Shown piece after piece: positions 863-30,148 of a stretch of DNA of 64,000 nucleotides. The stretch lies in the IMG/VR virus record IMGVR_UViG_2974646641_000001, positions 1 through 64,000 of that record. One strand, written 5' to 3'. The notes beneath the pieces were generated by a model. The model was not told the origin of the DNA and ran no database searches. It was given only the letters and a program-made list of their open reading frames with translations. The stretch's first letter is position 1. Each line of letters opens with the position of its first letter. Origin of the DNA: a virus (Duplodnaviria; Caudoviricetes). A program made the translations under genes and the position numbers.

Positions 863-1075
863 ACCTCTCCTTTAATTCATTCATTTTCATTTTCCTTATT
901 CATACACTTTCCTCCTGTGAGAGATTAATTTCTCTCTACATATATACTCGGTGTGGCAGATAATTATTATCTAAAAAAACCGCTGTTCGGCGCACAACTG
1001 CGATGTCCCGCAATGTTTTCCTATGCCTTTTTCTATCGGGACTGTAAATAATAAGATTAGAGAGGAGTTTTTAAC

Positions 1076-1207
1076 ATGACACAAAACTGTCCGTCATGTT
1101 CGACTCCAGTTGAAATAGATAAAAAAGATGACTATGTTATTTGTCCGTATTGTGGTTCTCTACTTGAAGTAGACGGTGATGACCTTGAAGAATACACAAT
1201 CGGGTAG
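1076..1207 (+). CDS. small zinc-ribbon protein (43 aa, not in ORF track)
   Basis: SD AGAGGAG; MTQNCPSCSTPVEIDKKDDYVICPYCGSLLEVDGDDLEEYTIG with CxxC...CxxC. Confidence 0.7.
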   Translation: MTQNCPSCSTPVEIDKKDDYVICPYCGSLLEVDGDDLEEYTIG

Positions 1208-1211
1208 AGAT

Positions 1212-1616
1212 TTGTCCGTGTGTCCTTATTGCGGAATGATTGTTGACAAGAGTACGCATGATTGTCCTGTAAAAAGGAAACGTAACAATCATAACGCAAG
1301 GATAGCACGTCAAAATCAAACAATTACAGAAAAAGCTCTGACTTCTCAAAGATGGCGTTCTTTTAGAAAGAAAATCATTTTGAGAGATGGCGGTGAGTGT
1401 CAGCGTTGCTTAATAAAGCTACACAAGCACACGTATGATGATTTAACTGTACATCATATTCAGCCGCGTGTCAATCACCCAGAGCTGATGTATGACGAAT
1501 CAAATTGTGTTACGCTTTGTCGTGAATGCAATTTAGCCATGGGTCTAAATGGTATTGATTTCGACTGGAATTTAACAAAGACTACAATAAATTTAGATGA
1601 TACGCTTCATTTCTAA
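1212..1616 (+). CDS. HNH endonuclease, packaging-associated (HK97 gp74-like position)
   Basis: CQRC...LTVHHIQP...NCVTLCRECN; directly upstream of terS; TTG at 1212 preferred over ATG 1176, which overlaps the upstream ORF. Confidence 0.85.
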   Translation: MSVCPYCGMIVDKSTHDCPVKRKRNNHNARIARQNQTITEKALTSQRWRSFRKKIILRDGGECQRCLIKLHKHTYDDLTVHHIQPRVNHPELMYDESNCVTLCRECNLAMGLNGIDFDWNLTKTTINLDDTLHF

Positions 1617-1630
1617 AGGGAGGTGAACAC

Positions 1631-2137
1631 ATGCCTAACGCTAGAAAACCTGCGGCGCTAGTTAAGGGTCACAACGAATCAGCTTCATCTTTAAAGAAAA
1701 GAATGGAAGATGAGGAGCGACTTAAAGGTGCTACTGACGAGGTACGTGTGGCACCTGACTTTATCAAAGGGTGGGAAACTGCCGAAAAATATTATGATTA
1801 TATCTGTGACCTGTTAGAAGACTCGGATATTCTTTCTAATTTAGATAGAATGGGTGTCGGGGCGCTTGCTGAATGCCTTGCCCGAATGGAAGAATCAAAT
1901 AAGGCAATGGCAGAAGATGGTGGTAATCTTATGATTACCGTTGAAACTAAAAACGGATATAAGACAATTGAAAATCCTTATATTAAGACCCACCTTAAAT
2001 TCTTTGATAGATTCAGGGTGCTATCAACACAATATGGATTATCTCCATCAAGTCGGGCACAGCTAAGTGCGTTAACTATTGAAGATAGAAGTCAAGGTAA
2101 TAGCGCGCTTGAAAGTATTATTAACAGCGATGATTGA
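1631..2137 (+). CDS. terS: terminase small subunit (P27-like)
   Basis: MPNARKP N-terminus, ENPY...YGLSPSSRA motif, position before terL, GGGAGG SD. Confidence 0.85.
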   Translation: MPNARKPAALVKGHNESASSLKKRMEDEERLKGATDEVRVAPDFIKGWETAEKYYDYICDLLEDSDILSNLDRMGVGALAECLARMEESNKAMAEDGGNLMITVETKNGYKTIENPYIKTHLKFFDRFRVLSTQYGLSPSSRAQLSALTIEDRSQGNSALESIINSDD

Positions 2138-2232
2138 TGATATTATTTCCTAGTCTTGATTAGGCTAGGGTACATATTTAGCTCAATGAGCAATACAGCG
2201 AGGTAGTTTTCAACTCGCTTATGTTACATAGA

Positions 2233-2306
2233 CGGGATATAGGACAGCTTGGTAGTTCACTCGGTTTGGAACCGAGACGTCGCTGGTTCAAATCCAGCTA
2301 TCCTGA
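2233..2306 (+). tRNA. tRNA-Pro(TGG), CCA not encoded
   Basis: Acceptor CGGGATA/TATCCTG, anticodon arm CTCGG-TTTGGAA-CCGAG, T arm GCTGG-TTCAAAT-CCAGC. Confidence 0.9.
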
Positions 2307-2334
2307 TAGTTAGTTCATTGAAAGGAAGAAAAGT

Positions 2335-2595
2335 ATGACAAGTAATGACTTTGTTGAGAAATGTACTAAATTAGTAAGAGACTACACTAATGAGCACATG
2401 GATAAAACAGATAACACTCAAATAAGCAGCAATGACGTATTCGTAGTTTGGTATAGTAAGACGCTTCAAAACCACAAAGCGTTGCTAAGCACAACAGTAT
2501 CAGATGGAATGTACTATGAACTGACATATAATGGCGATAAAAAGGAATTGTATTTAGATGCCTATAAGAAGTTCGAAAATAGGTGTATTAAGTAG
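2335..2595 (+). CDS. conserved phage protein (DUF6275-like)
   Basis: VFVVWYSKTLQNHKALLSTTVSDGMYYELTYNGDK motif recognised from memory. Confidence 0.65.
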   Translation: MTSNDFVEKCTKLVRDYTNEHMDKTDNTQISSNDVFVVWYSKTLQNHKALLSTTVSDGMYYELTYNGDKKELYLDAYKKFENRCIK

Positions 2596-2604
2596 ATTTA
2601 AAAC

Positions 2605-2663
2605 GTGCTTGTGCCGTTAATTAGTTTGGCAGTCATGTAGGGTGCAAATCCCTACCAAGCACA
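2605..2663 (+). ncRNA. truncated tRNA-like RNA (acceptor + one hairpin + T-like arm)
   Basis: GTGCTTG/CAAGCAC 7 bp; GTAGGG-TGCAAAT-CCCTAC; a single internal hairpin TGCCG/TGGCA. Confidence 0.55.
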
Positions 2664-2736
2664 TTACAGTGAGCGACTGATGACGTGTACGTCAAAAAAC
2701 GTTAGTTACCATTAAACTAAAAATGGAAGTCGACGT

Positions 2737-2828
2737 GTGGTTGAAGCATGGCTAGATAAGTCCCCACGAAGGGCCGCCCATGTCAGGAGGCTAGATACCG
2801 CGTGTGGTTCGATTCCACACCAATCACG
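2737..2828 (+). ncRNA. tRNA-like RNA with non-canonical core
   Basis: GTGGTTG/CAATCAC 7 bp; GTGTGG-TTCGATT-CCACAC; middle does not fold as D and anticodon arms. Confidence 0.55.
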
Positions 2829-2988
2829 TTAAGTTAAACGTGCCCGCGTCTCATAAACGGGCCTTATAAACACAGCACTTTTGCATTAATATGGTTGGAG
2901 GGTCACCATATTGCCCGGCAGAGGCTTTGTATCTGGCCGCTAGTCCTGATAAGTGACGTCTACTTATCCGACCCCATACATAATCGCA

Positions 2989-3024
2989 CCCCACACACCT
3001 CTTAACAATGTGGCCCAAGTGGGG
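2989..3024 (+). ncRNA. small nested hairpin motif, possible phage sRNA
   Basis: CCCCAC/GTGGGG enclosing CACACCTCTTAACAATGTG; resembles the skipping-rope RNA motif from memory only. Confidence 0.3.
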
Positions 3025-3030
3025 ACTTAT

Positions 3031-3103
3031 GCTCCCCTAGTGTAATTGGTTAACACGCTAGGTTTCCAACCTAGTAATGTCGGTTCAAGTCCGGCCGGGA
3101 GCT
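3031..3103 (+). tRNA. tRNA-Gly(TCC), CCA not encoded
   Basis: Acceptor GCTCCCC/CGGGAGC (one mismatch), anticodon arm CTAGG-TTTCCAA-CCTAG, T arm GTCGG-TTCAAGT-CCGGC. Confidence 0.88.
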
Positions 3104-3222
3104 TGTAGCTTAATTACAATAAAGTAAAACGTTTCTTGGTGTTTTCTTTCCATGTTCTTTTAAACCAAGAGTACATAAAATGTAGATTTTACAGTCTATA
3201 TTATAGCATATAATGAGGTGAT

Positions 3223-4935
3223 ATGTTGAAAGATAAAGAAATTTTCAACCACCCAGCTTATCAATATGCTCTAAAGGTTCATAATGGCGAAACCTTAGCC
3301 AACAAAGATGTCAAACTCGTTTGCGATAGGTTTATCAGAGAAGTTGACGAGAGCCTTGCTGGTAAAGGTGACTATTATTTTGATATTAATGCACTTAATC
3401 GTGTTTCTAAGTTATTAAAATTAATTATTATGGCAACTGGCCCTAGACGAGGTCAGAGTGCATACGATTCGCTGGCTGGTTTTCAGTGGTTTTTCTTTGT
3501 CAATATCTTTTGTTGGCGCCATAAAGAGAACCATAAACTGAGAAGATACCAAACAGCAACAATGTTGATACCCAGAAAGAACGGAAAGACTTTCATATCT
3601 GCCGTTATTTTCATTTTGTTGCTTATTTTAGAGCCAAAATATTCAAAATTCTACTCCGTAGCACCAGATTTAGAGTTATCTTCAATGTTAAAGACACAAA
3701 TTGACTCACTAATTGACGGCTCTCCTGAATTAGCCCGTTTTTTCAAGGTTAATAATAAGGATATTACGTGTTTATTGACTAAAAACAGCTATAAACCACT
3801 GGCAAATAGTAATAATCGTCTTGACGCACGTGAACCAGTAGCATTTTTGGCCGATGAAGTTGGGGCCTTACCTAATAGCTACCCGATTAACGCCATGAAA
3901 TCTGGTCAAACACTGGTTGATAATCCATTAGGTATTATCATTTCAACTGCTTATGACTCTCTCGACAATCCAATGACACAGGAAATCCAACGTGCCACTG
4001 ATAAGATTACGGACGGAGAATTGTATGACCCAGCGTATTTTGCGTTGATTTATAGGCCAGATAAGCCTAAAGAGTGGGCTACGAACGATGATGAGTTGAT
4101 AAAAGTCAACCCACTATCACAAGAAATACCAAAAGTTAAAGAACGCTTATTAAACGAGCGAGAAGACGCTGTTAATTATGAAGATAAGCGTCAAAACTTC
4201 TTAACAAAGTACATGAACATCTTTGTTGATGGTGATGAGGGTGAGCAATTCACAACCGAAGATGAACTCGACAGAGCCGAATTACCACAAGGTCTTGACT
4301 GGTACGGTCGTGACGTATTTGTTGGTCTTGACTTTGCCGAAAGTCACGATAACTTTGGTTTAGCTATGGTCACTTTCGATGAAGACCATCAGAAATATGT
4401 TGCTAAAGCATGGTCGTTTTTCCCAGCAGACCGAATTGCTGTTAAGACTAAGGTTGAAGGTTGGGATTATCAACACACCGAAAATGAGGGCTGGGGATAT
4501 TCCTCTGGTCACGAAACGATTGATTATGGCTTTGTAGAAGATTTCTTTTTTAATCTCGAATCAAAGTATGGCGTTAAGATTAAAGGTTTCGGTTATGATA
4601 AGTGGAATGCGCGTTCTACGGTCGCCAAGTTCATGGCTAGTGGCTATGACGGCGTTGAAATTCCACAGAACGCACGTGGCCTATATCCGGGGACGAAGCT
4701 TCTACGTGAAGCCTTGCAAAATGGAAATTTTGCTTATGATAAAAATGATATGTTACGTCAGAACTTCTTAAATGCTAAGATGGTCACTGATAGTAACCTA
4801 TCATACTTCTTAAACAAGAAAAAGTCAAGCGGTAAAATTGATATGGCCGCCGCAGTTGTTGACGCTATGTCCCTATGGGAAATCGAGGAATTTTCCAATA
4901 TTATGGGTGGTGCAAGCAACATCACATTACTTTAA
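3223..4935 (+). CDS. terL: terminase large subunit
   Basis: Walker A IPRKNGKT, Walker B FLADEV, C-terminal nuclease GLDFA...YDKWN...KIDMAAA. Confidence 0.95.
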   Translation: MLKDKEIFNHPAYQYALKVHNGETLANKDVKLVCDRFIREVDESLAGKGDYYFDINALNRVSKLLKLIIMATGPRRGQSAYDSLAGFQWFFFVNIFCWRHKENHKLRRYQTATMLIPRKNGKTFISAVIFILLLILEPKYSKFYSVAPDLELSSMLKTQIDSLIDGSPELARFFKVNNKDITCLLTKNSYKPLANSNNRLDAREPVAFLADEVGALPNSYPINAMKSGQTLVDNPLGIIISTAYDSLDNPMTQEIQRATDKITDGELYDPAYFALIYRPDKPKEWATNDDELIKVNPLSQEIPKVKERLLNEREDAVNYEDKRQNFLTKYMNIFVDGDEGEQFTTEDELDRAELPQGLDWYGRDVFVGLDFAESHDNFGLAMVTFDEDHQKYVAKAWSFFPADRIAVKTKVEGWDYQHTENEGWGYSSGHETIDYGFVEDFFFNLESKYGVKIKGFGYDKWNARSTVAKFMASGYDGVEIPQNARGLYPGTKLLREALQNGNFAYDKNDMLRQNFLNAKMVTDSNLSYFLNKKKSSGKIDMAAAVVDAMSLWEIEEFSNIMGGASNITLL

Positions 4936-4950
4936 AAGGAGGGATTCAAA

Positions 4951-6405
4951 ATCGCTGATACAAAAAACAAATGGTCTTTAAAAAACATTTTTAAGATTCC
5001 ATTTAGCCAACAACAGCCGGGACAAGACAGTCGTGGCGGTACTTTTGTGCGGTCACAGACTGGTACAGGGCCGTTATCTTTCACTGGCGATGATAGACCT
5101 ATCACCGAAGATACGGTTATGGAAATTCCGGCATTCAGTGCGGCGTTAGCGTTGGTTGCTGATACGGTAGCTTCTCTTGATATTTTATTGATGAAGACAG
5201 GCGACCAAGGTGTCCCACTTCCTGTTAAAGATGACGAACGAATCGCAATGCTTAATAAGCAAGCGAATGAGGAAATGTCTGCTTTCACGTATAAACGTTC
5301 AGTTGTTAAAGACTTGCTGTTGTATGGTCGCTCGTTGACTTATATTGAGCGAACAAGCGATGGTAAAATTAATGCTATCTATCCTCTGGCTTCTCGTTAT
5401 ATGACTACCGAGGTTTATACTTACGGTGGTTACAAATATTATGGTGTTTATACCTATAATTCAGAAGCTGGTTCATTTGAGTACGATGAAGAAGATTTGA
5501 TGAACGTTATTTCTGATTCGCAAGATGGTATTACAGCAGACGGTATTATGGCAAACTATACTGGAACACTCCAACTAGCGTTAGCACAGCGTGATTATGA
5601 AAAGAACCTGTTATCTAACGGTGCGGTTCCTGTTGGCGCTGTACGTTCTGATAGAGCAGTTGCACCAGAAGTTCTAGCTAGATTAAAGCAACAGTTCGCT
5701 TCGACTTACGCCGGAGCTGGTAATTCTGGTAAGACGCTATTTTTGGAAGGTGGATTATCTTACCAACAAATCAGTACGAATCCAGATAACATGCAATTGG
5801 ACTCCAGTAAGAAAAGCATGTTGGGTGAGATTGCCCGCATGTTTAATCTGCCAGAAACACTTATCAACGCTGGTGCCAATAAGTATAATTCTAATGAGCA
5901 AAATAACCTACAATTTTTCCAGTATTGTCTAAAGCCTATTTTAGCAAGTTTTGAAGCCGCAATCAACAAGGAATTGTTGTTAGAATCTGAAAAAGAGCAA
6001 GGCTACTTCTTTAAGTTTGATACTGATACCATTATGCAAAACACTTTCAAAGAAAAAGTTGCCGCATATGGCGCCTTATACAAGCAAGGGCTTATCTCTT
6101 ACGATGAGTTCCGTAATAAGTTTGGCTTTAGCAATATCGAGGGTGAAGACTTCATCAACCTCAGCCTTGGTTCTGTTCTCTACTATCCTAAGACTGGTGA
6201 AATGAAGATTCCTAACTTGGGTGTCGCTGGTGGTGCTACGCAGAGTTCTGGCGACCCCACAAAGATTACTCCTAAGAATCAAACGTTAGATAACGTTGCC
6301 TCTGGGGAATCGAAAGGTATTCAAAAAGCTCCTAACCAAAAGAATCAAGATGACAGCCATCAAGCAAAGGCTGACAATAATATGTTAGGAGGTAATGACG
6401 ATTAA
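4951..6405 (+). CDS. portal protein (HK97 family); start probably ATC at 4951 rather than GTG 5047
   Basis: IPAFSAALALVADTVASL, LLYGRS...YI, LEGGLSY, EIARMFNLP motifs; SD AGGAGGG 7 nt before ATC with an open frame to 5047. Confidence 0.92.
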   Translation: MADTKNKWSLKNIFKIPFSQQQPGQDSRGGTFVRSQTGTGPLSFTGDDRPITEDTVMEIPAFSAALALVADTVASLDILLMKTGDQGVPLPVKDDERIAMLNKQANEEMSAFTYKRSVVKDLLLYGRSLTYIERTSDGKINAIYPLASRYMTTEVYTYGGYKYYGVYTYNSEAGSFEYDEEDLMNVISDSQDGITADGIMANYTGTLQLALAQRDYEKNLLSNGAVPVGAVRSDRAVAPEVLARLKQQFASTYAGAGNSGKTLFLEGGLSYQQISTNPDNMQLDSSKKSMLGEIARMFNLPETLINAGANKYNSNEQNNLQFFQYCLKPILASFEAAINKELLLESEKEQGYFFKFDTDTIMQNTFKEKVAAYGALYKQGLISYDEFRNKFGFSNIEGEDFINLSLGSVLYYPKTGEMKIPNLGVAGGATQSSGDPTKITPKNQTLDNVASGESKGIQKAPNQKNQDDSHQAKADNNMLGGNDD

Positions 6406-7615
6406 ACAAAAAGAATTACGGACACTTAGTTTTGAAACACGGGATTTATCTTTTGACGATAAATCTTTAAAGGTATCTGGTTATGTAAACAGAGCTGGCT
6501 CTTACAGCCAAGTAATGTCTGCTGATGGTGCCCCTTTCCGTGAAACTATTTTGCCGCAAGCATTTGTTGAAGCCGTTAAAACAAAAGACCCGATTGATTT
6601 TTATGCGGAGCATGACGCTCAAAAGCTACTGGCAACCACTGTTAATCATTCATTGACGCTCCGTGCAGACGATGACGGTCTGTATATGGAAGCACAAATC
6701 CTAGACACGAATGATGGTCGTGACACATACGAACTTATCAAGAGCGGTGTTATCACGAGTATGAGTTTTGGATTTATCGTCCTTGATGATGAGTGGGATA
6801 GGTCTGGTGGCCGATTTAATGACGGTATTCCGCTACGAACCGTCAAAGAAATTAGCTTAAAAGAAGTATCTGCGGTACGTTTCCCTGCTTATCTAAGTTC
6901 AAGTATTGAAGCTCGTGGCCTTAAAGAGTTAAAAGAACTTGAACATAGGGGTATTAATAGCGTATCGGAAGTTGTTAATATTAAGGAGGGAAACAACTTG
7001 GAACTACGAGATGTAGAAACCAAAGATTTATTCGCTGAATTAGAACGGCGTGCAAAGCTTCCGGCAAACGAAGTTATCGTAAAGCCTAAAAAGCGTGCAA
7101 AACTTCCAGCCAATGAAGTAATTGTGAAACCCAAAAAACGTGATGATACACCATCTGATGATGATTTAACCGATGACGGCCAAGTAGAATCAGAAGACGC
7201 ACAAGCTCCGTCACAAACTATTGACATTGATGAATTGACAGACCGTATTGTCGCTTCTATCTTGGAAGGTATTAAAACTTCGTTGGCTAAACGCGATGGT
7301 GAGGGCGATGTTCCTGAACCAGACGGTTCTGATATGCCAGATGATAACACTGAAACTGATTCAATGAAACCAGATAAGCGTGCAAAGCTTCCAGCGAATG
7401 AAGTTATTGTAAAGCCAAAAAAACGTGATGATACACCAGATAATGGTGAAAACACTGGCGAATCAGATGGCAAACCTAACGATAAATCAAAAACCGATTC
7501 TAAAGGTAACAATGAAGACGGGTCGGAAGATGACACTAGAGCTTGCAAAAACGCTGAAAAGCGCAGTATGGAAGCACGTGAATTATTAAAAGAAATTAAT
7601 GATTTGGAGGTCTAA
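6395..7615 (+). CDS. prohead maturation protease (HK97 gp4/U35) with long acidic C-terminal scaffold-like extension
   Basis: AEHD, SMSFGF, EVSAVRFPAY motifs; C-terminal half low-complexity with repeats. Confidence 0.9.
   Translation: MTIKQKELRTLSFETRDLSFDDKSLKVSGYVNRAGSYSQVMSADGAPFRETILPQAFVEAVKTKDPIDFYAEHDAQKLLATTVNHSLTLRADDDGLYMEAQILDTNDGRDTYELIKSGVITSMSFGFIVLDDEWDRSGGRFNDGIPLRTVKEISLKEVSAVRFPAYLSSSIEARGLKELKELEHRGINSVSEVVNIKEGNNLELRDVETKDLFAELERRAKLPANEVIVKPKKRAKLPANEVIVKPKKRDDTPSDDDLTDDGQVESEDAQAPSQTIDIDELTDRIVASILEGIKTSLAKRDGEGDVPEPDGSDMPDDNTETDSMKPDKRAKLPANEVIVKPKKRDDTPDNGENTGESDGKPNDKSKTDSKGNNEDGSEDDTRACKNAEKRSMEARELLKEINDLEV
7049..7440 (+). repeat. three copies of the RAKLPANEVIVKPKK(RDDTP) coding repeat
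   Basis: Copies at 7049, 7094 and 7379, identical in protein but with synonymous DNA differences. Confidence 0.9.
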
Positions 7616-7618
7616 TTA

Positions 7619-8908
7619 GTGAAAACAAAGAAAGGTCTTTTGGAAAAGCGCTCGGCTTTAAAGAGCAAGCTGAACGACTTTAAACCAGTTATTGAAGATG
7701 GCACTATTACTGACGAACAATTAGAAGAAATGCGTTCTATCAAGTCAGATATTGTTTCTATCAATGACGAAATCGCAAGTTTAGATGAACAACGCAGTAG
7801 CGCCATTCCTACACAACATAATACACGAGGAGCTGAAAAAAATATGGCAGATTTAAAGAAACTTGAAAAGCGGGCGGCCGCAGAATTATTCCGCGACAAC
7901 ATGCAAGGTAGCAAAGCGGTTCGTGACTATATTGAAGCCGTAAAAGAACATGATGAAGGTCTTGATGTAGAAGACCGTGCACTACCAGACAATGGTTTAT
8001 CATGGGGCCAAGCCGTTGACGGTCAAAAAGCCAACGGTGGTGTTCTCGTTCCTACGACCGTTGCTGATACTATTGTTGAAAAGTTACAAGAAACTTCACC
8101 AGTGTTTGCATTATCAAACAAGATTGGTTCTGTAACTGGTAACTTACGGGTTGTTCGTGAAAGTGATACTTCCGATGATGGTTTCGTTGGTGAACTTGAA
8201 GAAGTAAAAGCACAAACTCCATCATTGAAGTATGTTGAATTAACTCAAAAGCGTGTCGGTGCTTCAATGCAATTATCGAACATGATGATTAACGATGGTG
8301 CTCCTGACATTGTTAGCTACGCTGTTGGCCGTTTGGGCCGTTCATTAGCTAAGGCTATCGAACGCGCCGTATTAGTTGGTGCTAAGACTCCCGAAGCCGC
8401 TTCAAAGACTTTCCGCCCAGTTGTTGCCGCAGATAACGGCGTTCAAGTCGTTCAATTGGCCGGTGCAACTCCTACGTTGGACGAATTGATTGAATTAACA
8501 GCCTCAATTAACCCAGCATATTTAGACCGTGCCGTATTTGTAGTATCTCGTGAAGTGTTCAACGCTTTATCCAAGATGAAAGATGATGATAACGAACACT
8601 TAATCTTCAAGCCACAAATGCAAAACACTATTGCCGGCGCTGTGGCTGTTCGGCCGGGATTCTCATTCCAAGGCATTCCTGTGTTCGTATCTGACCAATT
8701 GAACGGTAACGCAGATGGTCAAATCGTTTTAGGTAACTTTAGTGCTGGTTACACTATTATGACTAAACAAGGGTTGCGTTTAACTCACGTTACTGCTGAT
8801 ACGCAACAAGCACTTGCTGGTGGTCATTTGGTTGTTCTTGACGGCTACATGGACGGTGCTGTTACTAACCCTGACGCATTCGTAGTTGCTAAGCCTGCGA
8901 GTAAGTAA
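7619..8908 (+). CDS. major capsid protein (HK97 fold, N-terminal coiled-coil delta domain)
   Basis: GGVLVPTTVADTIVEKL, FVGELEE, GIPVFVSDQL...LGNFS motifs; follows the protease. Confidence 0.93.
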   Translation: MKTKKGLLEKRSALKSKLNDFKPVIEDGTITDEQLEEMRSIKSDIVSINDEIASLDEQRSSAIPTQHNTRGAEKNMADLKKLEKRAAAELFRDNMQGSKAVRDYIEAVKEHDEGLDVEDRALPDNGLSWGQAVDGQKANGGVLVPTTVADTIVEKLQETSPVFALSNKIGSVTGNLRVVRESDTSDDGFVGELEEVKAQTPSLKYVELTQKRVGASMQLSNMMINDGAPDIVSYAVGRLGRSLAKAIERAVLVGAKTPEAASKTFRPVVAADNGVQVVQLAGATPTLDELIELTASINPAYLDRAVFVVSREVFNALSKMKDDDNEHLIFKPQMQNTIAGAVAVRPGFSFQGIPVFVSDQLNGNADGQIVLGNFSAGYTIMTKQGLRLTHVTADTQQALAGGHLVVLDGYMDGAVTNPDAFVVAKPASK

Positions 8909-9033
8909 TCCGGCTCCCGCGGTCACTGGCGTTACCCCTAACGTGAATAGCGCTACGGTGGTAGCTAAGTAATAAGCCCGATTATTAAACCTCCTCATTT
9001 GAGGAGGTGTACATATCTACATGATAGGAGGTA

Positions 9034-9495: not shown

Positions 9496-9535
9496 TCCTA
9501 CCCCGTTTTTCGGGGGTACATAGGAGGTGTAATAG

Positions 9536-9823
9536 ATGTCGGTGACAATTGATGACTTTAAGAATCAAATTAACGCAGATTCTGATGAAGATGTTGATTT
9601 ATATTTTAACCATGCTGTTGATTACGTCAATTTTTACGTGTCAAGAGTCGCTGGTCAATTCGAGGGTGTTCGTGAAAAACAATTTGAGGCTATTGTAGAT
9701 AGAGCTGTATTAGAAGTTGCTACGACCCTATACTTGAAACGTGACGGAGCGCCCGTCAGTGGCACTGTTAATTCCTCCTCACTAGAAACCATTATGAATT
9801 ATGGTAGAAACTTCTCAATCTAG
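9536..9823 (+). CDS. head-tail connector (gp6-like)
   Basis: Size, position, AVLEVATTLYLKRDG motif. Confidence 0.75.
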   Translation: MSVTIDDFKNQINADSDEDVDLYFNHAVDYVNFYVSRVAGQFEGVREKQFEAIVDRAVLEVATTLYLKRDGAPVSGTVNSSSLETIMNYGRNFSI

Positions 9824-9839
9824 TTAGTGGGGTGATAAG

Positions 9840-10701: not shown

Positions 10702-10704
10702 GAT

Positions 10705-11721: not shown

Positions 11722-11848
11722 ATTAGCTAAGGTTACTCCTAGTGTGAGTAATGTAACAATTGAAACTGAATAATCACCTACATACCCCGTCTGGGGTGTG
11801 TGTACATATCCAAAAATAAAATATTAGATGAAAGACGAGGAGATTCAC

Positions 11849-12247: not shown

Positions 12248-12425
12248 TCGTCTTGAAAAAGCATTAGTTGCTCAAAAGCAAGACACGTTCAACAACCTAG
12301 AGGAAACCAATTATTTTGATTTACTAGAAATGCTATCTGTTGATGATAACAGCGATGGTTCTAGTTCTGACGATGAGGTAGTTCCTTTGGGGTACTGGTT
12401 AGAAGATAACATTGCCGAGGGGTAA
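12203..12425 (+). CDS. tail assembly chaperone frameshift extension (T-like, +1 frame)
   Basis: Overlapping open frame without its own SD; LEETNYFDLLEML resembles T-type chaperone tails. Confidence 0.55.
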
Positions 12426-12455
12426 TGTTATTGTTTTTACTTATTTTTGTTGGTT

Positions 12456-12482
12456 AAGTTCGCTTTGGCGGGCTTGTTTTTT
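12456..12482 (+). terminator. intrinsic terminator-like hairpin before the tape measure gene
   Basis: AAGTTCGC-TTTG-GCGGGCTT followed by GTTTTTT. Confidence 0.55.
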
Positions 12483-18163: not shown

Positions 18164-18224
18164 CACCATATTTGGGGGCCACACCCCCAAATATACATAC
18201 ATCATTAACATAGGAGGTAATATA

Positions 18225-20009: not shown

Positions 20010-20062
20010 ACGGAACGATAGAGAACTCCTCTATCGTACATACACAAGAGGAGGTATTGTTA

Positions 20063-22441: not shown

Positions 22442-22452
22442 GAGGTTATAGA

Positions 22453-25400
22453 ATGGCAAGAAGTGCATTTGTCGAAGTTAATATTACCAACCCTACTAAA
22501 CTAGCACAAGATTCACAGGACACTGCCAACAACGCGGTTAAGGGTGTCACAGACTTAAATGACCCTAATTTAATGTCCGTGATTGAGAAGCAAAACAACG
22601 TTGTGCAGTTCGCTGGTTTAACATCTCAATATAACGTTCTCGTACAGAACGCTAAAGATGAGGGGATTGACACAACCGCTGTAACTACGGCGTATAACAA
22701 CTTGAACAAATTCATGGCTGACGTTTTAGCAGACCCTGACCATGCTAGTGATGTTGACCGTGTGACATATAAGAAATATCAGGACGCTTACAACGAAGAA
22801 TTAGCAAAGCTTCAAAACGCTCTACAAAATAATGCCAACAATAAATTTGATAGTGCCGCCAGTGCCACAAGTCAGGCGGCTTCAACAGCTAGTCAAGCGG
22901 CTAGTCAAGCACAGTCTGCTGTTGATTATACTAATGGTCAAATTGCTTCACAAGCGAGTGCCGTTTCAGAAGCTTCTAAGAATGCTTCCGAAGCTTCATC
23001 AAAAGCCAACAGTGCTCTTGACGCGGCTAGTGGTGCTAACGCTGAAATTACTAAGCTAAAAGGTGGTTCAACCTTAACCATCGCAGAGCTAGAAGATGGT
23101 CTAGGTACAAAAGTTTCTAATGATACATTCACGACATATCAAACACAAACTGCTAGTCAGTTCGCAGAAACAGTTAAAGAAGCTGACTTTACAACTTACC
23201 AAACTCAAACCAGCAAGTTAATCGAATCTAAAGTTGATAACGGAACTTACCAGACAGATAAGACACAAACAGCTAAAGATATCGCTTCAAAAGTTTCTTC
23301 TAGCGATTTTGAGACTTATCAAACGCAAACAGACGGCATGATTGCCAGTAAGGTTTCTAAGAAAGACGCTAATAATGTCAACTTAATACCTTACTCTAGC
23401 AACTTTTCAGATTCATTAGAAGGTTGGCAATTAATGGCATGGGGTGCAACTGATAGAAAACTATTGGTAACTACTCACAGTTTCTATAAAAATGGAACTG
23501 GGAAGTTATTATACCTAAATACAGCACAGAACGCAACTTCTGCCGCTGGTTCATTACGTTTCTCGGTATTACCAAACACTAAATACACGTTCCAATTTAA
23601 GGCGTTTGCTTCATCTAACGTTGTTGGAGCTAATGTGTATTTCTTGTCACGTGCTTATGGTTCGACCAGTGATTACGACACAGCTCATGGCCTATTTAAT
23701 AATCTGGTAACTTCTCCATCACATATTGACCAGTATACGGTTACATTTACAACTGGAGCCAATGATAATGAAGGTTATATCAGAGTTGATAATATAGGTT
23801 CTAATAATGGAGCTTCTTCTGGTTTGTTCTTTACTGAACTCAAAATGGAGCCGGGTGATACCGCAACGAACTATATTTATGGTGGTCAAGATTCTATGAT
23901 TTCTCAAATGTCTAACGACATCATTCTAAGAGTAACCAAAGATGGCTTGATTGACCAAATTAATATTCAGGCTGGTAATACCTTAATTTCATCTAGTGGT
24001 CAACTAACATTGTCTGGTAAAAGTGTCTTCCTTGACAGTGTTGACCCCGTTATCATGAAAAGTGCTAATATTGACACGCTCCTTGTTGGTAAAAAACTGA
24101 CGGCGGCTGATATTGCGGCCAATACCTTCACAACTAATAACGGGACTTTCACAGTAGACAAGAATGGTCTTGTTACGGCGACGAGCCTAATTATTCGTGG
24201 CTCTACAAACCTAGTTTATAACGCGTCATTATCCGGTGGTAATGGCTCATATATTCCGGGGTGGAATATGAACGGTGAAGGCTATTATTCTAACGCTGTT
24301 TTGTATGATGGTGTGCCGGCTTTAGTTTGGGCGGGTACAACCGCAAGCGGTGTTTGGGATAATTACGCAACAACCTATTATCAACCTGTAACACAAACCG
24401 GCATTCCATATAGTGCTTCTGGGACTTTCAGAGATTATGGTTCTGCTAGTGGAATGATGTTTCAATGCACTTTAGCATTCTTTACTGATAAAGCCACAGC
24501 TTCACGTATTAACGGTTATAAGGCATTCAATTATACCGCAACTGGTGGAGATAGTGGTAGTATTTACTTCACTATTGACAATGTAGTTGCACCAAGCAAT
24601 GCTAAGTATGTGGCTTTACAGTTCTGGGCTTATAACGGCAAAGGACATGCCGCATGGAGCCAGCCGATGTTAACACAGACTGCAAAAGCTACTGGTTATC
24701 AACCAGATACGGGCAATATTATCAGCGCTGGTACGGTAATTGGTACAAACATTAGCGCTTCTATTATTAGCGGGACAACGATTCATGCTGGAGATATTAT
24801 TAATAGCACCAATAATACTGCTAATTTTTATCCATTAACAATTGATTCTAATGGTTTCATACAATCATACCATATTGACGATAATTTTGCAAACTCTGCT
24901 AAATTATACACTGGAAATTTGGTTATTAGCAACCGTAATATGTCAGCCAATGCTGGGTCTAATAATTTTGCCGGTGAAACTGCTGTTCTAGGTGGTTCTT
25001 CTTTAACATTGTCATCTGGATATACAGTCGGGAAAGATACCGATTTTACAAAAACCTTAATATCAGAAGGTCAGCCGGGGACGACTAAACTTACACTTTC
25101 GGGTATCACTGGCATTACCTTAAAAGGCGACGACCAAAAGATTCACTTTCACGGCATGTATTCAGACTCTCAGCCTAAAGGAATAACATTCACACCATAT
25201 GGGAACATAAATGGTGACGAGGGTAGAACGACTGGTAATTGGTACGTTGGTTATAATTTAGCTAATATGACTGCGCAGTTTGGGATAGATAATCTCAATA
25301 AAAATACCATTGAATTTTATCGTCCAACCTTTGTTGATGAAATTGGCGCTATGGGTAATCGCTTAGATAACGGCAGATTATTGCTACACGCTGTTGATGG

Positions 25401-25872
25401 AAATGCCCAAATGTACCTTTTAAATGATGGTTCGCCAGCGGTTGCGTCACCGACAGTTTATAACCGAACGTATTCTAACGGTGCAAATGTGTTTGTCACC
25501 TCATATGGTCGTATCGGTAGGTCAACCTCGGCAAGTAAGTACAAACTAGCTATCGCCAGAAGCGATGATACATTGCAAGCTGACCGTTTAATGACTCTAA
25601 AACCAGCAAGCTGGAATGACAAAGTAGCTACGGAAAAAATGGCTGAATCATTGTCAAATGGTGAAATACCAGTAGAAGCAGAAATAAATCTAAGACGACA
25701 TTACGGCTTAATTGCCGAGGATTTACGAGACGCTGGACTAGATGAGTTCTTAATCACTGGTAAAGATGGTCAAATTGAAGGTATTGAATACGACCGTTTA
25801 TGGACGGTACTAATTCCTAAAATTAAACAGCTAAATAATAGAATTAACGAACTTGAAAGGAAGACCCTATAA
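22453..25872 (+). CDS. tail fibre/spike with two CBM-like modules and C-terminal intramolecular chaperone (S74-like)
   Basis: Coiled-coil and TYQTQT repeats, NLIPYSSNF and NLVYNASL CBM starts, STSASKYK...RHYGLIAEDL...IEYDRL. Confidence 0.82.
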   Translation: MARSAFVEVNITNPTKLAQDSQDTANNAVKGVTDLNDPNLMSVIEKQNNVVQFAGLTSQYNVLVQNAKDEGIDTTAVTTAYNNLNKFMADVLADPDHASDVDRVTYKKYQDAYNEELAKLQNALQNNANNKFDSAASATSQAASTASQAASQAQSAVDYTNGQIASQASAVSEASKNASEASSKANSALDAASGANAEITKLKGGSTLTIAELEDGLGTKVSNDTFTTYQTQTASQFAETVKEADFTTYQTQTSKLIESKVDNGTYQTDKTQTAKDIASKVSSSDFETYQTQTDGMIASKVSKKDANNVNLIPYSSNFSDSLEGWQLMAWGATDRKLLVTTHSFYKNGTGKLLYLNTAQNATSAAGSLRFSVLPNTKYTFQFKAFASSNVVGANVYFLSRAYGSTSDYDTAHGLFNNLVTSPSHIDQYTVTFTTGANDNEGYIRVDNIGSNNGASSGLFFTELKMEPGDTATNYIYGGQDSMISQMSNDIILRVTKDGLIDQINIQAGNTLISSSGQLTLSGKSVFLDSVDPVIMKSANIDTLLVGKKLTAADIAANTFTTNNGTFTVDKNGLVTATSLIIRGSTNLVYNASLSGGNGSYIPGWNMNGEGYYSNAVLYDGVPALVWAGTTASGVWDNYATTYYQPVTQTGIPYSASGTFRDYGSASGMMFQCTLAFFTDKATASRINGYKAFNYTATGGDSGSIYFTIDNVVAPSNAKYVALQFWAYNGKGHAAWSQPMLTQTAKATGYQPDTGNIISAGTVIGTNISASIISGTTIHAGDIINSTNNTANFYPLTIDSNGFIQSYHIDDNFANSAKLYTGNLVISNRNMSANAGSNNFAGETAVLGGSSLTLSSGYTVGKDTDFTKTLISEGQPGTTKLTLSGITGITLKGDDQKIHFHGMYSDSQPKGITFTPYGNINGDEGRTTGNWYVGYNLANMTAQFGIDNLNKNTIEFYRPTFVDEIGAMGNRLDNGRLLLHAVDGNAQMYLLNDGSPAVASPTVYNRTYSNGANVFVTSYGRIGRSTSASKYKLAIARSDDTLQADRLMTLKPASWNDKVATEKMAESLSNGEIPVEAEINLRRHYGLIAEDLRDAGLDEFLITGKDGQIEGIEYDRLWTVLIPKIKQLNNRINELERKTL

Positions 25873-26114
25873 TGGAAAACATTAATATTACAACTGTATC
25901 AGTTCAGCCGGATAGTGTTTTTAAAATCAACTTTTCGGCAACGTATGAATCATCGTCACATATCGAGGGCTTTGTTCTTATGAAAGCAGAAGATTATCGT
26001 TCTAAGACAGGTGACGAACAAGTAGCATTCATTAAGCAAACTATTGCAGATAATTTGGCTGGCAAGATTACACCAGTATCTCAATTAGCTACTAACGATT
26101 CTAATAAGATTTAA
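25872..26114 (+). CDS. hypothetical tail-associated protein
   Basis: Translationally coupled to the fibre gene. Confidence 0.6.
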   Translation: MENINITTVSVQPDSVFKINFSATYESSSHIEGFVLMKAEDYRSKTGDEQVAFIKQTIADNLAGKITPVSQLATNDSNKI

Positions 26115-26131
26115 TATGGAGGATTTAAATT

Positions 26132-26554
26132 ATGAAATTTGAATTACAAAACCAATTTGTTGCACCATCAATTGAATTTCTAAAGAGGTTGTCACTTGCT
26201 GGCTACCAATCAATTGCTCGGACACGCTTAATTAAAATGTTATCTGATAAAAATGATGAAATTGTTGGTCTTCAAAAAGACCTAATTAAAGAATACGCCG
26301 ATAAAGACGATAAAGGTGAATTGATTGTCAAAGACGGTCAATACAGCTTTACACCTGAAAATGATGTAGCTTTCAGAAAAGCGTATTTTGAATTAATGAT
26401 GGAAAATGGCGAAATTGAAAAGGCCACCTATTCACACCACAAAGAAGACTGTCAAGACTTCTTATTAAATGCAGACATTAATGTATCTGGCGATGAAGCA
26501 ACGTGTTATGACGCGTTATGTATTGCATTAGATGTTGATTTCGATAAGCGATAG
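26132..26554 (+). CDS. DUF1617-like phage protein
   Basis: GGAGG SD; SIARTRLIKML...YADKDDKGELI pattern. Confidence 0.6.
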   Translation: MKFELQNQFVAPSIEFLKRLSLAGYQSIARTRLIKMLSDKNDEIVGLQKDLIKEYADKDDKGELIVKDGQYSFTPENDVAFRKAYFELMMENGEIEKATYSHHKEDCQDFLLNADINVSGDEATCYDALCIALDVDFDKR

Positions 26555-26570
26555 AAAGGAATGATTTAGT

Positions 26571-27683
26571 TTGGCAAAGACATTAGAATATGCCGACACT
26601 TCTGCTCAAACCGTAAAAATTGGCGATACGACTACCAGTTTCACAATGGTATTGGGCGAAGATAGCAACCCCATTGACCTTACTAACGCAACAAGCATTA
26701 TTGCCAAGATAGGTAATAGCACCGGCTACCTAAAAGAGCAAACAGTCACTTCTGATAATATCCCAGACCCTTTGTCTGGTCAAGTAATTATTAAATTTGA
26801 TTCTGAATTTATGAATGGACTTCCAGCGGGTTCTTACTTGTTAGAAGTTTGGGTGACTTATGATAGCGGAGTTGCTATCTATCCTAGTGGTGCTTTAACA
26901 GGATTTACAATTAATAATAACATTGAAGCTAGTGGTGGTTCAACCATCACAACTATCACATTCGATGATTTCGTAGATAAGTTTAATGAAATCGCGGCAA
27001 ACGCACTACCGGGGACAACTGACACTACTAACTTTCAGAAACGAAAAATTACGAACGATGATGGTAGTTTTTATTTAAGCATTCCTAATGCAACTGGCGT
27101 TGATGTGACGGATAAATTACTTTCTTTGCCAAGTGGTTTATACACCTGCTATATTCAGGTCGGTGCAAAGAATAACCCAAGCAATGATTCGCTAAGAGGA
27201 ATTGTTTGGGTTTCTGCTGGTTATGGGGGTGGCATTTTTGGCACAAACACTACTGGTGGGTATACATCGTATAGACTATTTATAGAAGGCTCATCTTTAC
27301 AGTGGAAAAAATACCCCGCTCAAACGTCTGGTACTTTAGATGTTGAGCCGGCATTTTATATGACTGGTACAACAAGTAGTGAAAAAGCCTTGAACTATGT
27401 GCTAACTGGAAATGTATTGCACGTCAGTGGTATTGTTGTCCCAAGTTCTGAAATAGCGGCAGGAGGTACTGCTGTATTATTCAACTTACCATCTTCAATT
27501 GGTACCATAAGCGAATACAGAACCGCTGTACAGCAAAGCTCTAGCTATAACTTGTATTGTTTGAATTGGAAGCCAAATGGCCCCGTTTCAGTGATTAAAC
27601 ATAATACTGCTGGAACCGCAACAGCTATCACAACATCAACAGAATTGCAGGTATGCGTTGATATTGTTATTAACCCTAGTTAG
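26571..27683 (+). CDS. BppU-like baseplate/receptor-binding protein
   Basis: TVKIGDTTTSF...GSYLLEVWV...AIYPS N-terminus. Confidence 0.7.
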   Translation: MAKTLEYADTSAQTVKIGDTTTSFTMVLGEDSNPIDLTNATSIIAKIGNSTGYLKEQTVTSDNIPDPLSGQVIIKFDSEFMNGLPAGSYLLEVWVTYDSGVAIYPSGALTGFTINNNIEASGGSTITTITFDDFVDKFNEIAANALPGTTDTTNFQKRKITNDDGSFYLSIPNATGVDVTDKLLSLPSGLYTCYIQVGAKNNPSNDSLRGIVWVSAGYGGGIFGTNTTGGYTSYRLFIEGSSLQWKKYPAQTSGTLDVEPAFYMTGTTSSEKALNYVLTGNVLHVSGIVVPSSEIAAGGTAVLFNLPSSIGTISEYRTAVQQSSSYNLYCLNWKPNGPVSVIKHNTAGTATAITTSTELQVCVDIVINPS

Positions 27684-27755
27684 CAATAAAATTCAAATTT
27701 TACTCTGAAAAAATTATCAAGAAGTAAACATTAACACACAAAAGGAGACATAAAG

Positions 27756-29147
27756 ATGAATAAACGACTAAAACACGTACTATACGGTACTGCATTGGCA
27801 TTATCGTTAGGATTATCTGCTTCTGCTATTAATACGCAGAATGCCAGTGCCGCTAACACCAGTGATGGTGCCGTTGTTAAAAAAGTTGTTGACATTTCAG
27901 AATGGCAAGGCAACGTTTCTTATCAGAAGGCTTTAGCTTTAAAATCTGAAACCTCATTTGTAATTGTCCGTGTTCAATACGGTTCTAATTACAAGGATAT
28001 TCAGTATAAGAACACGATTGCTAACCTCGAAAAAGCTGGGACGCCATACGGTGTTTATTCTTATTCGCGGTATGTAAATGCTTCTGACGCTAAGCAAGAA
28101 GCCAAAGACCTTTATAATCGTGCTAAGAATGCTAAGTTCTTCGTTAATGACGCAGAAGAAGTTACTACGACTAGTGGTTCTTATTCTAGTGCTGTTAAGG
28201 CTTGGGGTTCTGAAATGCAAAGCTTAACCAACAAGCCAGTTATCCTATATTCTGGTAGCTATTTCTACAACAATTATATTGGAACTATGAGCAACTATGA
28301 CGCTTTTTGGGAAGCTAACTATAGTAACCATTATCTCAAAGACCCAGCATTATGGCAGTACACGGATTCTGGTTACTCAACTAGTCTTGGTTTAGGTGTT
28401 GATACCAACAAGGTTATCACATCTAAACACCCTGTAAAGTGGTGGATTGGTTCCAGTGCCGCTGACAAGCAAAACGTAGACAAGTATCATGTTGGTGGAT
28501 TCAAGGTTGGTGACAAAGTTAAGATTAACTCTAACGTTGCTAAATGGGACGATGGCGATACTAAGACCCCAATTGATAGTTCCGTATTGAAGAAGACTTA
28601 CACTGTTGGTCAAATCAAGCAAGTAACGGAAGGCAAATCTAACCAAATGCTCTTACTAAAGAGCGGTAACACCGTTGTTGGTTGGACGTTAGCTGAACAT
28701 GTTACGAAGCAAGGTTCTAGTTCGAATTCCAGCTCATCTAACAGCAACAAAGCTTCTAACCAAACCTATAACCAAAACGGGACATTCTACCCAAACACCA
28801 CTCTTAATGTTCGTACTGGAGCTGGCACCAACTACTCCAAGGTAGCCACTTATTACAGTGGTGAAAGCGTTAAGTATAACCAAGTAATCATTAAATCTGA
28901 TTATGTCTGGGCTAGATATTTACGCTCTAACGGTTATTACGGGTATATTGCTCTAGGTGTAAATGGTGGTGAAAGCTACGGTAAGCGTATTGTCGGTGCT
29001 TCTCATACCTATTATACAGTTAAATCTGGTGATAGTCTATGGAAGATTGCCAACGACCACGGAACTACTATTAGCAATTTAACTAGCCTTAATGGTATCT
29101 CGATGTATAGCACTATCTATCCAAACCAACGACTAATTATTAGCTGA
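27756..29147 (+). CDS. endolysin: signal peptide + GH25 muramidase + SH3b + LysM
   Basis: VVDISEWQG, FVNDAEE, ALWQYTD; C-terminal YYTVKSGDSLWKIA...IYPNQRL LysM. Confidence 0.92.
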   Translation: MNKRLKHVLYGTALALSLGLSASAINTQNASAANTSDGAVVKKVVDISEWQGNVSYQKALALKSETSFVIVRVQYGSNYKDIQYKNTIANLEKAGTPYGVYSYSRYVNASDAKQEAKDLYNRAKNAKFFVNDAEEVTTTSGSYSSAVKAWGSEMQSLTNKPVILYSGSYFYNNYIGTMSNYDAFWEANYSNHYLKDPALWQYTDSGYSTSLGLGVDTNKVITSKHPVKWWIGSSAADKQNVDKYHVGGFKVGDKVKINSNVAKWDDGDTKTPIDSSVLKKTYTVGQIKQVTEGKSNQMLLLKSGNTVVGWTLAEHVTKQGSSSNSSSSNSNKASNQTYNQNGTFYPNTTLNVRTGAGTNYSKVATYYSGESVKYNQVIIKSDYVWARYLRSNGYYGYIALGVNGGESYGKRIVGASHTYYTVKSGDSLWKIANDHGTTISNLTSLNGISMYSTIYPNQRLIIS

Positions 29148-29164
29148 TAAGGGAGGTTCACCAC

Positions 29165-29494
29165 ATGGTATTAAGTAACATTATTGCCGCCGTTCCACCT
29201 CATTATTTCTTTGGATATAATCTTAGTGAATGGACGGAACTGATTGCCATTGTGAGTGCTTTTTTATCACTAGTTTCTTGGTTGTTCAAACGAGTTATTA
29301 TTGACCCGTTGATGGAAAAGATTAGTGACTTAGGTGATAGTATTAAGCAATTGTCTGCTACGCAGAATGAAGATTCTAACACATTTATGCAAACGCTAGA
29401 GAAGCACACCGAAGAACTTGGAGAAGTTAAGATTACGATGGCAAGGCACGACGAAGAATTAAGGTCTCTCTGGAAGGGGAAGAATAGAACATGA
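29165..29494 (+). CDS. lysis-cassette membrane protein (one TM helix + coiled coil)
   Basis: Hydrophobic segment ELIAIVSAFLSLVSWLF; position. Confidence 0.6.
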   Translation: MVLSNIIAAVPPHYFFGYNLSEWTELIAIVSAFLSLVSWLFKRVIIDPLMEKISDLGDSIKQLSATQNEDSNTFMQTLEKHTEELGEVKITMARHDEELRSLWKGKNRT

Positions 29495-30087
29495 ACAAAA
29501 TTAAAACTGCATTTAACAACTTTATTTCTCAATTCGTAAAAACATTTGAAACTAACAAGACTAAGCCTAGCTACTGGTTACAAATTATCGGTTCTGTTTT
29601 AATCATCGGATTAGCTGTTGGTTCAGCATTCTTTGGTCTAAAGATTGACCGTAGTGATGTCCTTATGGTATTTACGGTTATTGGTTCAGTGCTTGCGTTC
29701 GTAGGTACTGTAACGGATAATTCTATCCTTGAAAATGTTGGTAACGGTATTAAAAACGATTCTGATAGTTTAACGAGTAGTGAACAAGACGTTCTCAACA
29801 AACTTGTCGAAGCTCAAAAGGCGATTGAAAATGCAAAGACACCAACTGAGCAAGCACAATTAGCATTAAGTGCCGCTAATGAAGCTCAATCTGTTGCAGA
29901 TAGCTTAGCAAATAAACTATCTAAAGAAGCCGTTTCAGACGCAGTCGTTAGTACGCAGGAAGTAGCACAGGTCGTAACCAGTGAATCAACAAGTGTCGCA
30001 GAGCCAGCTAGTGCTGTATCAGAAGTACCAGTAAGCGAAGCTACGTCAGAAGCTCCTACTAGCGAAACTCCTACTAGCGAAGCTTAG
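29491..30087 (+). CDS. holin-like protein with Ser/Glu/Thr-rich tail
   Basis: Two TM segments, then low-complexity SEA/PTSE repeats. Confidence 0.65.
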   Translation: MNKIKTAFNNFISQFVKTFETNKTKPSYWLQIIGSVLIIGLAVGSAFFGLKIDRSDVLMVFTVIGSVLAFVGTVTDNSILENVGNGIKNDSDSLTSSEQDVLNKLVEAQKAIENAKTPTEQAQLALSAANEAQSVADSLANKLSKEAVSDAVVSTQEVAQVVTSESTSVAEPASAVSEVPVSEATSEAPTSETPTSEA

Positions 30088-30148
30088 TATTAATCCTCAC
30101 AGTTATGTGAGGGTACATAAAATACAAAAAAAGGAATGGTGAGATACA

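Follow-up and report, generated by a model that had tools for sequence, protein, structure and literature searches.

In the genome of a virulent siphovirus of Lactobacillus plantarum, placed by sequence comparison among Tybeckvirinae relatives, the hexamer TACATA has been removed from the messages and is enriched between them, on the transcribed strand only, and most of the retained copies directly follow a short hairpin. We consider these hairpin-hexamer modules to be probably (at roughly two chances in three) programmed cleavage sites for a MazF-type endoribonuclease, at which the hairpin would protect the 3' end of the upstream RNA fragment. The stretch analysed, referred to here as the window, comprises the first 64 kb of a 73.8-kb contig (IMG/VR record IMGVR_UViG_2974646641_000001, positions 1 to 64,000), and the motif counts given below span the whole 73.8-kb genome unless stated otherwise. 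Read as RNA, TACATA is U^ACAUA, the strict MazF/EndoA hexamer, which is present in 15 sense-strand copies, and the phage itself carries an orphan gene for a MazF/EndoA-type endoribonuclease, mazF (40858..41220, minus strand, 120 amino acids), whose product is the candidate enzyme for these sites.

Distribution of TACATA within and between genes

With the coding or intergenic status of each copy taken from a gene map based on open reading frames (ORFs), all 15 sense-strand copies of TACATA in the genome are intergenic and none lies in sense coding sequence, compared with 14 antisense copies inside coding sequence. The binomial P value for this intergenic preference is 1.5e-15, which ranks TACATA above the Shine-Dalgarno (SD) hexamer AGGAGG. 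An earlier reading made from the letters alone, hereafter the sequence-only reading, had listed copies at 388, 937, 2171, 2225, 2977, 3172, 9010, 9517, 11779, 11803, 18194, 20037 and 30114; all of these were verified on the plus strand, and their description as intergenic and sense-strand was borne out by the gene map. The module is, however, not restricted to the late operon as that reading had it, as further copies lie at 41395 (minus strand, upstream of mazF) and 61795 (plus strand), and early regions of phage ATCCB also carry modules.

The absence from genes exceeds what codon usage would produce, with 0 sense coding copies against 9.9 +/- 2.7 expected from 300 synonymous-codon shuffles, among which the minimum was 3. 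Antisense copies in coding sequence are not depleted by the same measure (14 vs 17.7 expected). Between genes the departure is in the other direction: a first-order Markov model predicts 3.1 sense copies in intergenic sequence where 15 are found, a five-fold excess (P 9e-7), and predicts 3.6 copies of the reverse complement where there is 1. A count over both strands of the whole window (27 vs 44.6 expected) masks this pattern because the depletion in genes and the enrichment between genes cancel. The base at position -1 is G in 9 of the 15 intergenic copies.

Chance was rejected as the source of the pattern by the binomial, shuffle and Markov tests. Restriction avoidance was also rejected as its cause, since true restriction sites are depleted here on both strands and TACATA on one, as was a Type III-like single-orientation bias, since the two DNA orientations of the hexamer are equally frequent (15 and 15). 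Avoidance of restriction sites on both strands is a genome-wide feature in its own right, with GATC words, GGATG/CATCC, GCATC/GATGC, GCAGC/GCTGC and CTGAAG absent or nearly so; the pooled relatives additionally avoid TCTAGA, GATATC, AGTACT, TTCGAA, GAATTC, CAGCTG, CTGCAG and AGGCCT.

Hexamer depletion across phages and the MazF specificity profile

We scanned 3725 hexamers for strand-specific depletion in the pooled coding sequences of the source phage and of phages 8014-B2, Lenus and ATCCB. TACATA showed the strongest strand-specific depletion of all, with 8 sense copies vs 55.2 expected and 94 antisense copies vs 92.6 expected, and the remaining top-ranked hexamers were palindromic restriction sites, depleted on both strands. 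Single-base neighbours of TACATA in the pooled set occur at about 1.0 of expectation, except for TACATC (0.49), TACTTA (0.64), TACATT (0.69) and the SnaBI palindrome TACGTA. Bacillus subtilis EndoA cuts only U/ACAUA and leaves a 5'-OH end (PMC11780869), and the MazF enzymes of Listeria monocytogenes and Staphylococcus aureus favour the same hexamer, that of S. aureus being weakly active on UACAUC and UACUUA (bioRxiv 10.64898/2026.08.06.743204). The partial depletion of TACATC and TACTTA matches this reported off-target profile, and all 8 residual coding copies of TACATA in the four genomes have a pyrimidine at position -1.

Taken singly, relatives show the same shortage of sense coding copies relative to expectation: 2/14.3 in 8014-B2, 5/14.3 in Lenus, 2/14.5 in SA-C12 and 1/16.0 in ATCCB. 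The unrelated L. plantarum myovirus Iacchus, which encodes MazF, has 1 copy vs 11.9 expected in its structural genes, and this lone 'coding' TACATA lies next to a hairpin, where the assignment of the start codon is doubtful. A second strand-specific depletion in the pooled coding sequences concerns CAGGT-type hexamers (TCAGGT, GCAGGT, CAGGTG and TTCAGG).

Hairpins beside the motif

The stems were checked by RNA folding together with an explicit stem search, and every stem quoted in the sequence-only reading is present. Its statement that the stem ends 0-2 nt before the motif in most copies also stood up, this being the case for 9-11 of the 15, the full list being 937, 2171, 3172, 9010, 9517, 11803, 18194, 20037, 30114, 41395 and 61795. 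At 388, 2225 and 2977 the stems are no more than weak or distant, and the copy at 11779 serves as the 5' arm of the hairpin at 11803, with a predicted unpaired probability of 0.05. Stem lengths range from 5 to 11 bp and the stem sequences are unrelated among modules. Under a strict definition applied to seven phage genomes (a perfect stem of at least 6 bp and a loop of 3-9 nt, ending 0-3 nt upstream), a hairpin precedes 54/116 noncoding sense sites, compared with 8.8% of control noncoding positions and 5/125 antisense-in-coding sites (P 1e-26).

These hairpins lack U-tracts and are not ordinary terminators, as had been claimed, and a terminator scan of the source phage returned 0 TACATA hairpins; its canonical terminators lie elsewhere, one at 12405-12476 and one closing the late operon (31393-31424). 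An Rfam scan returned two tRNAs only and no known RNA family at the modules. With stems of 5-11 bp, the modules also do not provide the duplex of ~20 bp or more, holding the scissile bonds, that marks a T7-type RNase III site. A sigma-A -35/-10 pair with 16-18 nt spacing is absent upstream of the motif at the late-operon modules and was found only at 41395 and 61795. The further claim that an SD follows within about 25 nt is right for part of the set: it holds at 9010, 9517, 18194, 20037 and 30114 but fails at 937, 2171, 2225 and 2977.

Conservation of junctions in relatives

The head genes of the source phage are 94% identical to those of phages Satyr and Maenad, ~85% identical to those of ATCC 8014-B2 and Gut-P1 and ~74% identical to those of SA-C12, Nyseid and Lenus. 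We compared 10 orthologous junctions, namely those before the HNH/small terminase genes, after the small terminase gene, before the tRNA, before the large terminase gene, downstream of the major capsid, FN3-like and major tail genes (three junctions), between the tape-measure and Dit genes, between Dit and the next tail gene, and between holin and recombinase. TACATA is present in 58/58 junction-by-genome combinations across six phages, with a gap of 0-2 nt throughout, and the stems differ between genera. The stem after the major tail gene, for example, is TACATACCCC/GGGGTGTGTG in the source phage, GCGCCTC/GGGGCGC in 8014-B2 and TACCACC/GGTGGTA in Lenus. In these comparisons the stems change around an invariant TACATA, and 8014-B2 shows a compensatory stem change at the module before the large terminase gene (3133..3177). 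That the motif is kept at 58 positions despite this turnover of stems argues for purifying selection on the sites themselves.

TACATA is also the most intergenic-enriched hexamer in both 8014-B2 and Lenus. The more distant Lactobacillus brevis phage ATCCB has the same arrangement in early and late regions, immediately past its capsid and major tail genes and close upstream of the mazF that it encodes. In 8014-B2 and ATCCB some modules come after an operon's final gene and have nothing beyond them, a position that fits a 3'-end element and not a promoter.

The phage MazF gene

The product of 40858-41220 matches Pfam PF02452 PemK_toxin (E 3.1e-22, profile positions 1-107 of 109) and phrog_1936 (E 1.2e-38), and among solved structures it is closest to those of S. 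aureus MazF and B. subtilis EndoA (PDB 4mzm and 4mdx; E about 1e-19). No MazF near to the phage protein turned up for Lactiplantibacillus in a search of plasmids. Residues R33 and T56 align to the catalytic Arg25 and Thr48 (B. subtilis numbering); these two residues and the LPTH and EQ motifs do not vary among four phage homologues. Directly upstream of the gene is a consensus promoter, TTGACA-N17-TATAAT, with an AAGGAGG SD (41254..41282, minus strand). The cognate MazE that stands immediately upstream in a type II MazEF system was not found in this position, which holds only the promoter and a 9-codon micro-ORF, and no AbrB or RHH antitoxin family turned up in ten ORFs neighbouring mazF.

Downstream, mazF is overlapped by a 117-aa ORF (40532-40885), which in turn overlaps a 177-aa ORF (40006-40539), both on the minus strand; they belong to phrog_14545 and phrog_5083, with no assigned function, and are kept beside mazF in 8014-B2, Lenus and SA-C12 and absent in ATCCB. 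The 117-aa protein has no family match, its single-sequence AlphaFold model has a pLDDT of 52, and there is a weak RNase H-like Atlas lead (0.89).

A proposed mechanism

From the motif statistics, the hairpin association, the conservation of sites with turnover of stems and the identity of the gene, we infer cleavage, the enzyme that carries it out and the stabilising and expression-tuning effects set out here. A MazF/EndoA-type endoribonuclease would cut single-stranded phage RNA at U^ACAUA. The phage would make its antitoxin-less MazF early, from the consensus promoter, and a host enzyme of the same specificity may contribute, doing some or all of the cutting. As UACAUA has been purged from every phage coding sequence, such an enzyme could act in the infected cell without destroying phage messages, and it would probably act on host mRNAs too. 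The sites retained between cistrons lie 0-2 nt past a stable hairpin, so cleavage there would divide polycistronic transcripts into defined segments.

Each upstream segment would end in the hairpin, about 1-3 nt and a 2',3'-cyclic phosphate, and would be a poor substrate for 3' exonucleases. Each downstream segment would begin 5'-OH-ACAUA, a short distance ahead of the SD, which at 9517 directly follows, and would be a poor substrate for 5'-P-dependent RNase J1. In Gram-positive RNA decay, 3' exonucleases depend on a single-stranded tail and RNase J1 has a preference for a 5'-monophosphate, and for these reasons both ends produced by cleavage may be relatively stable. Cleavage may also expose the SD of the downstream cistron and tune the stoichiometry of the products. 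One module comes next after the major capsid gene and another next after the major tail gene, and two flank the FN3-like 153-aa gene, a layout that fits a possible segment-wise tuning of expression.

A wider proposal, which we regard as evenly balanced between right and wrong, is that an antitoxin-less MazF has been domesticated by virulent phages of Lactobacillus, in Tybeckvirinae and independently in a myovirus of the Herelleviridae, to degrade host mRNA and also to mature the phages' own messages. The purge of UACAUA would then constitute immunity, and the modules would define stable segments that set the relative output of the capsid, tail and lysis genes.

Weighing the cleavage reading against its alternatives

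The sequence-only reading had tied programmed cleavage at U^ACAUA to the product of 40858-41220. That core proposal has strong, if indirect, support from the identity of the hexamer, the PemK/MazF family of the protein, the strand- and hexamer-specific depletion and the retention of the motif while stems change, although the acting enzyme may be one of the host, given the temperate L. plantarum phages Sha1 and phig1e.

Several observations weigh against this reading. Phages phig1e and Sha1 lack MazF and are depleted too (0/5.0 and 3/7.6 sense coding copies), and they carry terminator-like hairpins followed by TACATA at junctions of tail genes of the tape-measure/Dit type (4203, 19004 and 20848 in Sha1; 21329 and 30593 in phig1e). 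The pattern in these phages is weaker than in the source phage, but its presence without a MazF of their own means that the phage enzyme is not required to explain it. Two distant MazF-encoding phages show little or no depletion, with 14/23.8 (mild) in Thomasclavelia phage TR-TP1 and 24/17.6 (none) in the fecal contig MT835527; it follows that the method does not itself create depletion, and also that not every phage MazF gene comes with this signature. The MazF of the source phage shares only ~40% identity with the characterised UACAUA enzymes and has a beta1-beta2 loop extended by 3 residues; its UACAUA specificity is one that we infer from the genome footprint. The mean unpaired probability of the motif (0.56) is not significantly higher than that of control hexamers (0.48, P 0.07).

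The remaining point of this kind concerns the modules outside the late operon. At 41395..41432 (minus strand), an 11-bp hairpin, 1 nt and TACATA (41400-41395) overlap a TTGACA-N17-TATGCT promoter upstream of the 9-codon micro-ORF and mazF; at 61773..61800 (plus strand), in the rightward early cluster, a 9-bp hairpin, 1 nt and TACATA (61795-61800) overlap a TTGACA-N17-TACGCT promoter. In both, the motif falls at the expected start point of the sigma-A-type promoter, so transcripts from those promoters may lack the full site.

Among the alternatives, the one that survives best, though we think it unlikely, is that the pattern is a footprint of defence evasion only. A UACAUA-specific RNase of the host, such as a chromosomal or plasmid MazF/PemK, would have purged the hexamer from genes, intergenic copies being tolerated or buffered by hairpins with no processing role, and the phage mazF would serve another purpose, for example host shutoff or superinfection exclusion. 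The depletion in MazF-less phig1e and Sha1 speaks for this explanation, L. plantarum carries MazF/PemK-family proteins, and an interaction with host MazF is known for phages of the SPbeta type. It does not anticipate a five-fold excess of intergenic copies over expectation, nor sites kept at all 58 of the orthologous junction positions while the stems turn over, and the constant 0-2 nt spacing from the hairpin is unexpected for sites that are merely tolerated. In addition, a 2026 preprint reports that EndoA-type MazF is absent from the genus Lactobacillus, which may or may not extend to Lactiplantibacillus.

Less probable still is that TACATA is a transcription start element, either an initiator or a -10-like promoter element read by host RNA polymerase with a phage factor, with the hairpins as terminators of the preceding unit. 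The main observation behind a transcriptional reading is that at 41395 and 61795, and at 3424 and 47055 of 8014-B2, the motif lies 1-3 nt past a sigma-A-type -10 box, which would place CA at -1/+1, and T4 late promoters likewise consist of a single short element. Yet the late-operon modules lack -35/-10 boxes, modules follow operon-terminal genes, and there is no avoidance of antisense copies inside genes, where a promoter would do harm. The annotations of the relatives contain no sigma factor or RNA polymerase, and neither was found among the 20 window proteins scanned; the chance is small that a promoter hexamer would equal the MazF hexamer and share its off-target profile as well. We accordingly disfavour the late-promoter alternative that the sequence-only reading had offered beside cleavage. 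Non-canonical termination or pausing, in which the hairpin and UACAUA would act co-transcriptionally in factor-dependent termination or attenuation between late blocks, is very improbable, for although ATCCB and Sha1 have the same motif after U-tract hairpins resembling intrinsic terminators, the source-phage stems lack U-tracts even though true terminators occur elsewhere in the genome, and both the purge of the bare hexamer from coding sequence and the match to MazF specificity would be left unexplained.

Individual modules and other features of the genome

The first gene block, which spans 1 to 31.4 kb and holds the terminase, portal, capsid, tail and lysis genes, points rightward; the second, spanning 31.4 to 50.6 kb with DNA polymerase III alpha, the HNH endonucleases, mazF and recombination genes, points leftward; and a third, from 51.7 kb onward, is again rightward. 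The modules of the first block are all on the plus strand. A weak one at 362..393, in the noncoding leader ahead of the late region, has a 6-bp stem with an 11-nt loop ending 3 nt upstream of TACATA 388-393. It is followed at 919..942 by the hairpin GAGAGA/TCTCTC and TACATA 937-942, upstream of the HNH/small-terminase genes, a junction that is kept in relatives with different stems. Right after the small terminase gene, a 9-bp hairpin directly abuts TACATA 2171-2176 (2148..2176).

The next sites are associated with a cluster of tRNA and noncoding RNA genes, which the copies at 2171, 2225, 2977 and 3172 bracket. TACATA 2225-2230 (site 2186..2230) lies 2 nt 5' of tRNA-Pro (2233-2306) with a weak, long-loop stem upstream, and TACATA 2977-2982, within the cluster, has no abutting perfect stem, the nearest hairpin ending ~9 nt upstream. 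At 3133..3177, upstream of the large terminase gene, an 8-bp stem with a 23-nt loop stands directly before TACATA 3172-3177. Between 2600 and 2980 there are tRNA-like fragments not called by ARAGORN or Rfam, such as the T-arm-like stretches near 2637-2665 and 2800-2826, together with a weak rli62-like match at 2822-2961 (E 0.12).

Further along this block, the module at 8989..9015, 80 nt past the major capsid stop, consists of an 8-bp hairpin, 1 nt and TACATA 9010-9015 with an SD downstream, and that at 9501..9522, after the 153-aa FN3-like gene, of a GC hairpin and TACATA 9517-9522 fused to its SD (TACATAGGAGG). The hairpin directly abuts the hexamer in each of the others: a 10-bp hairpin and TACATA 11803-11808 after the major tail protein gene (11779..11808), a 10-bp hairpin and TACATA 18194-18199 at the tape-measure/Dit junction (18169..18199), an 8-bp hairpin and TACATA 20037-20042 at the junction of Dit and the next tail protein (20016..20042), and an 8-bp hairpin and TACATA 30114-30119 between the holin-region genes and a recombinase-like gene (30094..30119).

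Some further observations concern the leftward block and the comparison genomes. At 41341-41432 (minus strand), the spacer and -10 box of the TTGACA-N17-TATGCT promoter form the 11-bp hairpin and the micro-ORF has its own SD, all of this lying upstream of the mazF promoter. The replication cluster contains 4 HNH/NUMOD homing-endonuclease genes, all on the minus strand (35306-35950, 36672-37298, 39108-39929 and 43771-44286). The DNA polymerase III alpha gene is uninterrupted in the source phage (31424-35284), whereas 8014-B2 and SA-C12 annotate two pieces with an ORF between them. The contig MT835527.1 has few long ORFs under code 11 and its TAG-containing hexamers look 'depleted', which would fit a recoded TAG stop.

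Significance and comparison with known systems

A literature search found no paper on a phage that encodes MazF, avoids the MazF site throughout its own genes and keeps such sites at junctions beside hairpins. If this reading is right, a bacterial stress and defence toxin would be serving lytic phages as an enzyme for RNA processing and host takeover, with self-protection achieved purely by sequence avoidance, and toxin specificity would be seen to shape genome composition. Operon architecture and expression stoichiometry would become readable from phage genome sequence, and the many orphan 'MazF-like growth inhibitor' genes annotated in phages would be accounted for. One 120-aa enzyme and a hairpin-hexamer module would also represent a compact, portable mRNA-segmentation system for Gram-positive hosts.

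The nearest known enzymes are B. subtilis EndoA (MazF-Bs, ndoA) and the MazF proteins of S. aureus and L. monocytogenes, with which the phage system shares the hexamer, the family PF02452, the catalytic Arg and Thr and the profile of weak sites. Those enzymes are chromosomal, restrained by MazE and directed at a host regulon, whereas the phage gene has no antitoxin, is driven by a consensus promoter and encodes a protein only ~40% identical to them; the phage genome is purged of the site, which is kept only at hairpin-flanked gene junctions.

In phage T7, host RNase III cuts intergenic structured sites within long imperfect duplexes, and a 3' hairpin stabilises the upstream message. The arrangement proposed here is similar in that a polycistronic phage mRNA would be cut at intergenic structures to leave a 3' hairpin on the upstream piece, but the stems are short (5-11 bp), variable and would not themselves be cut, the specificity residing in a single-stranded hexamer beside the stem. 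RegB of phage T4 cuts GGAG in the SD of early genes, inactivating early mRNAs, and needs ribosomal protein S1. Like RegB, the phage MazF is predicted to be a phage-encoded, sequence-specific endoribonuclease that targets short motifs close to translation starts in the transcripts of its own phage. RegB, however, is not of the PemK_toxin (MazF) family, and the sites described here follow hairpins and precede SDs that are left intact, an arrangement that suggests maturation of the messages and not their inactivation.

In the temperate phages SPbeta and phi3T, MazF sites are enriched inside genes and the antitoxins AimX and YosL act against host MazF (Guler et al. 2024; Zamora-Caballero et al. 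2024). The two cases have in common that the biology of a Bacillota phage is tied to a UACAU(A)-specific MazF, but they are opposite in design, as the virulent phage studied here encodes the toxin and has stripped its sites from genes.

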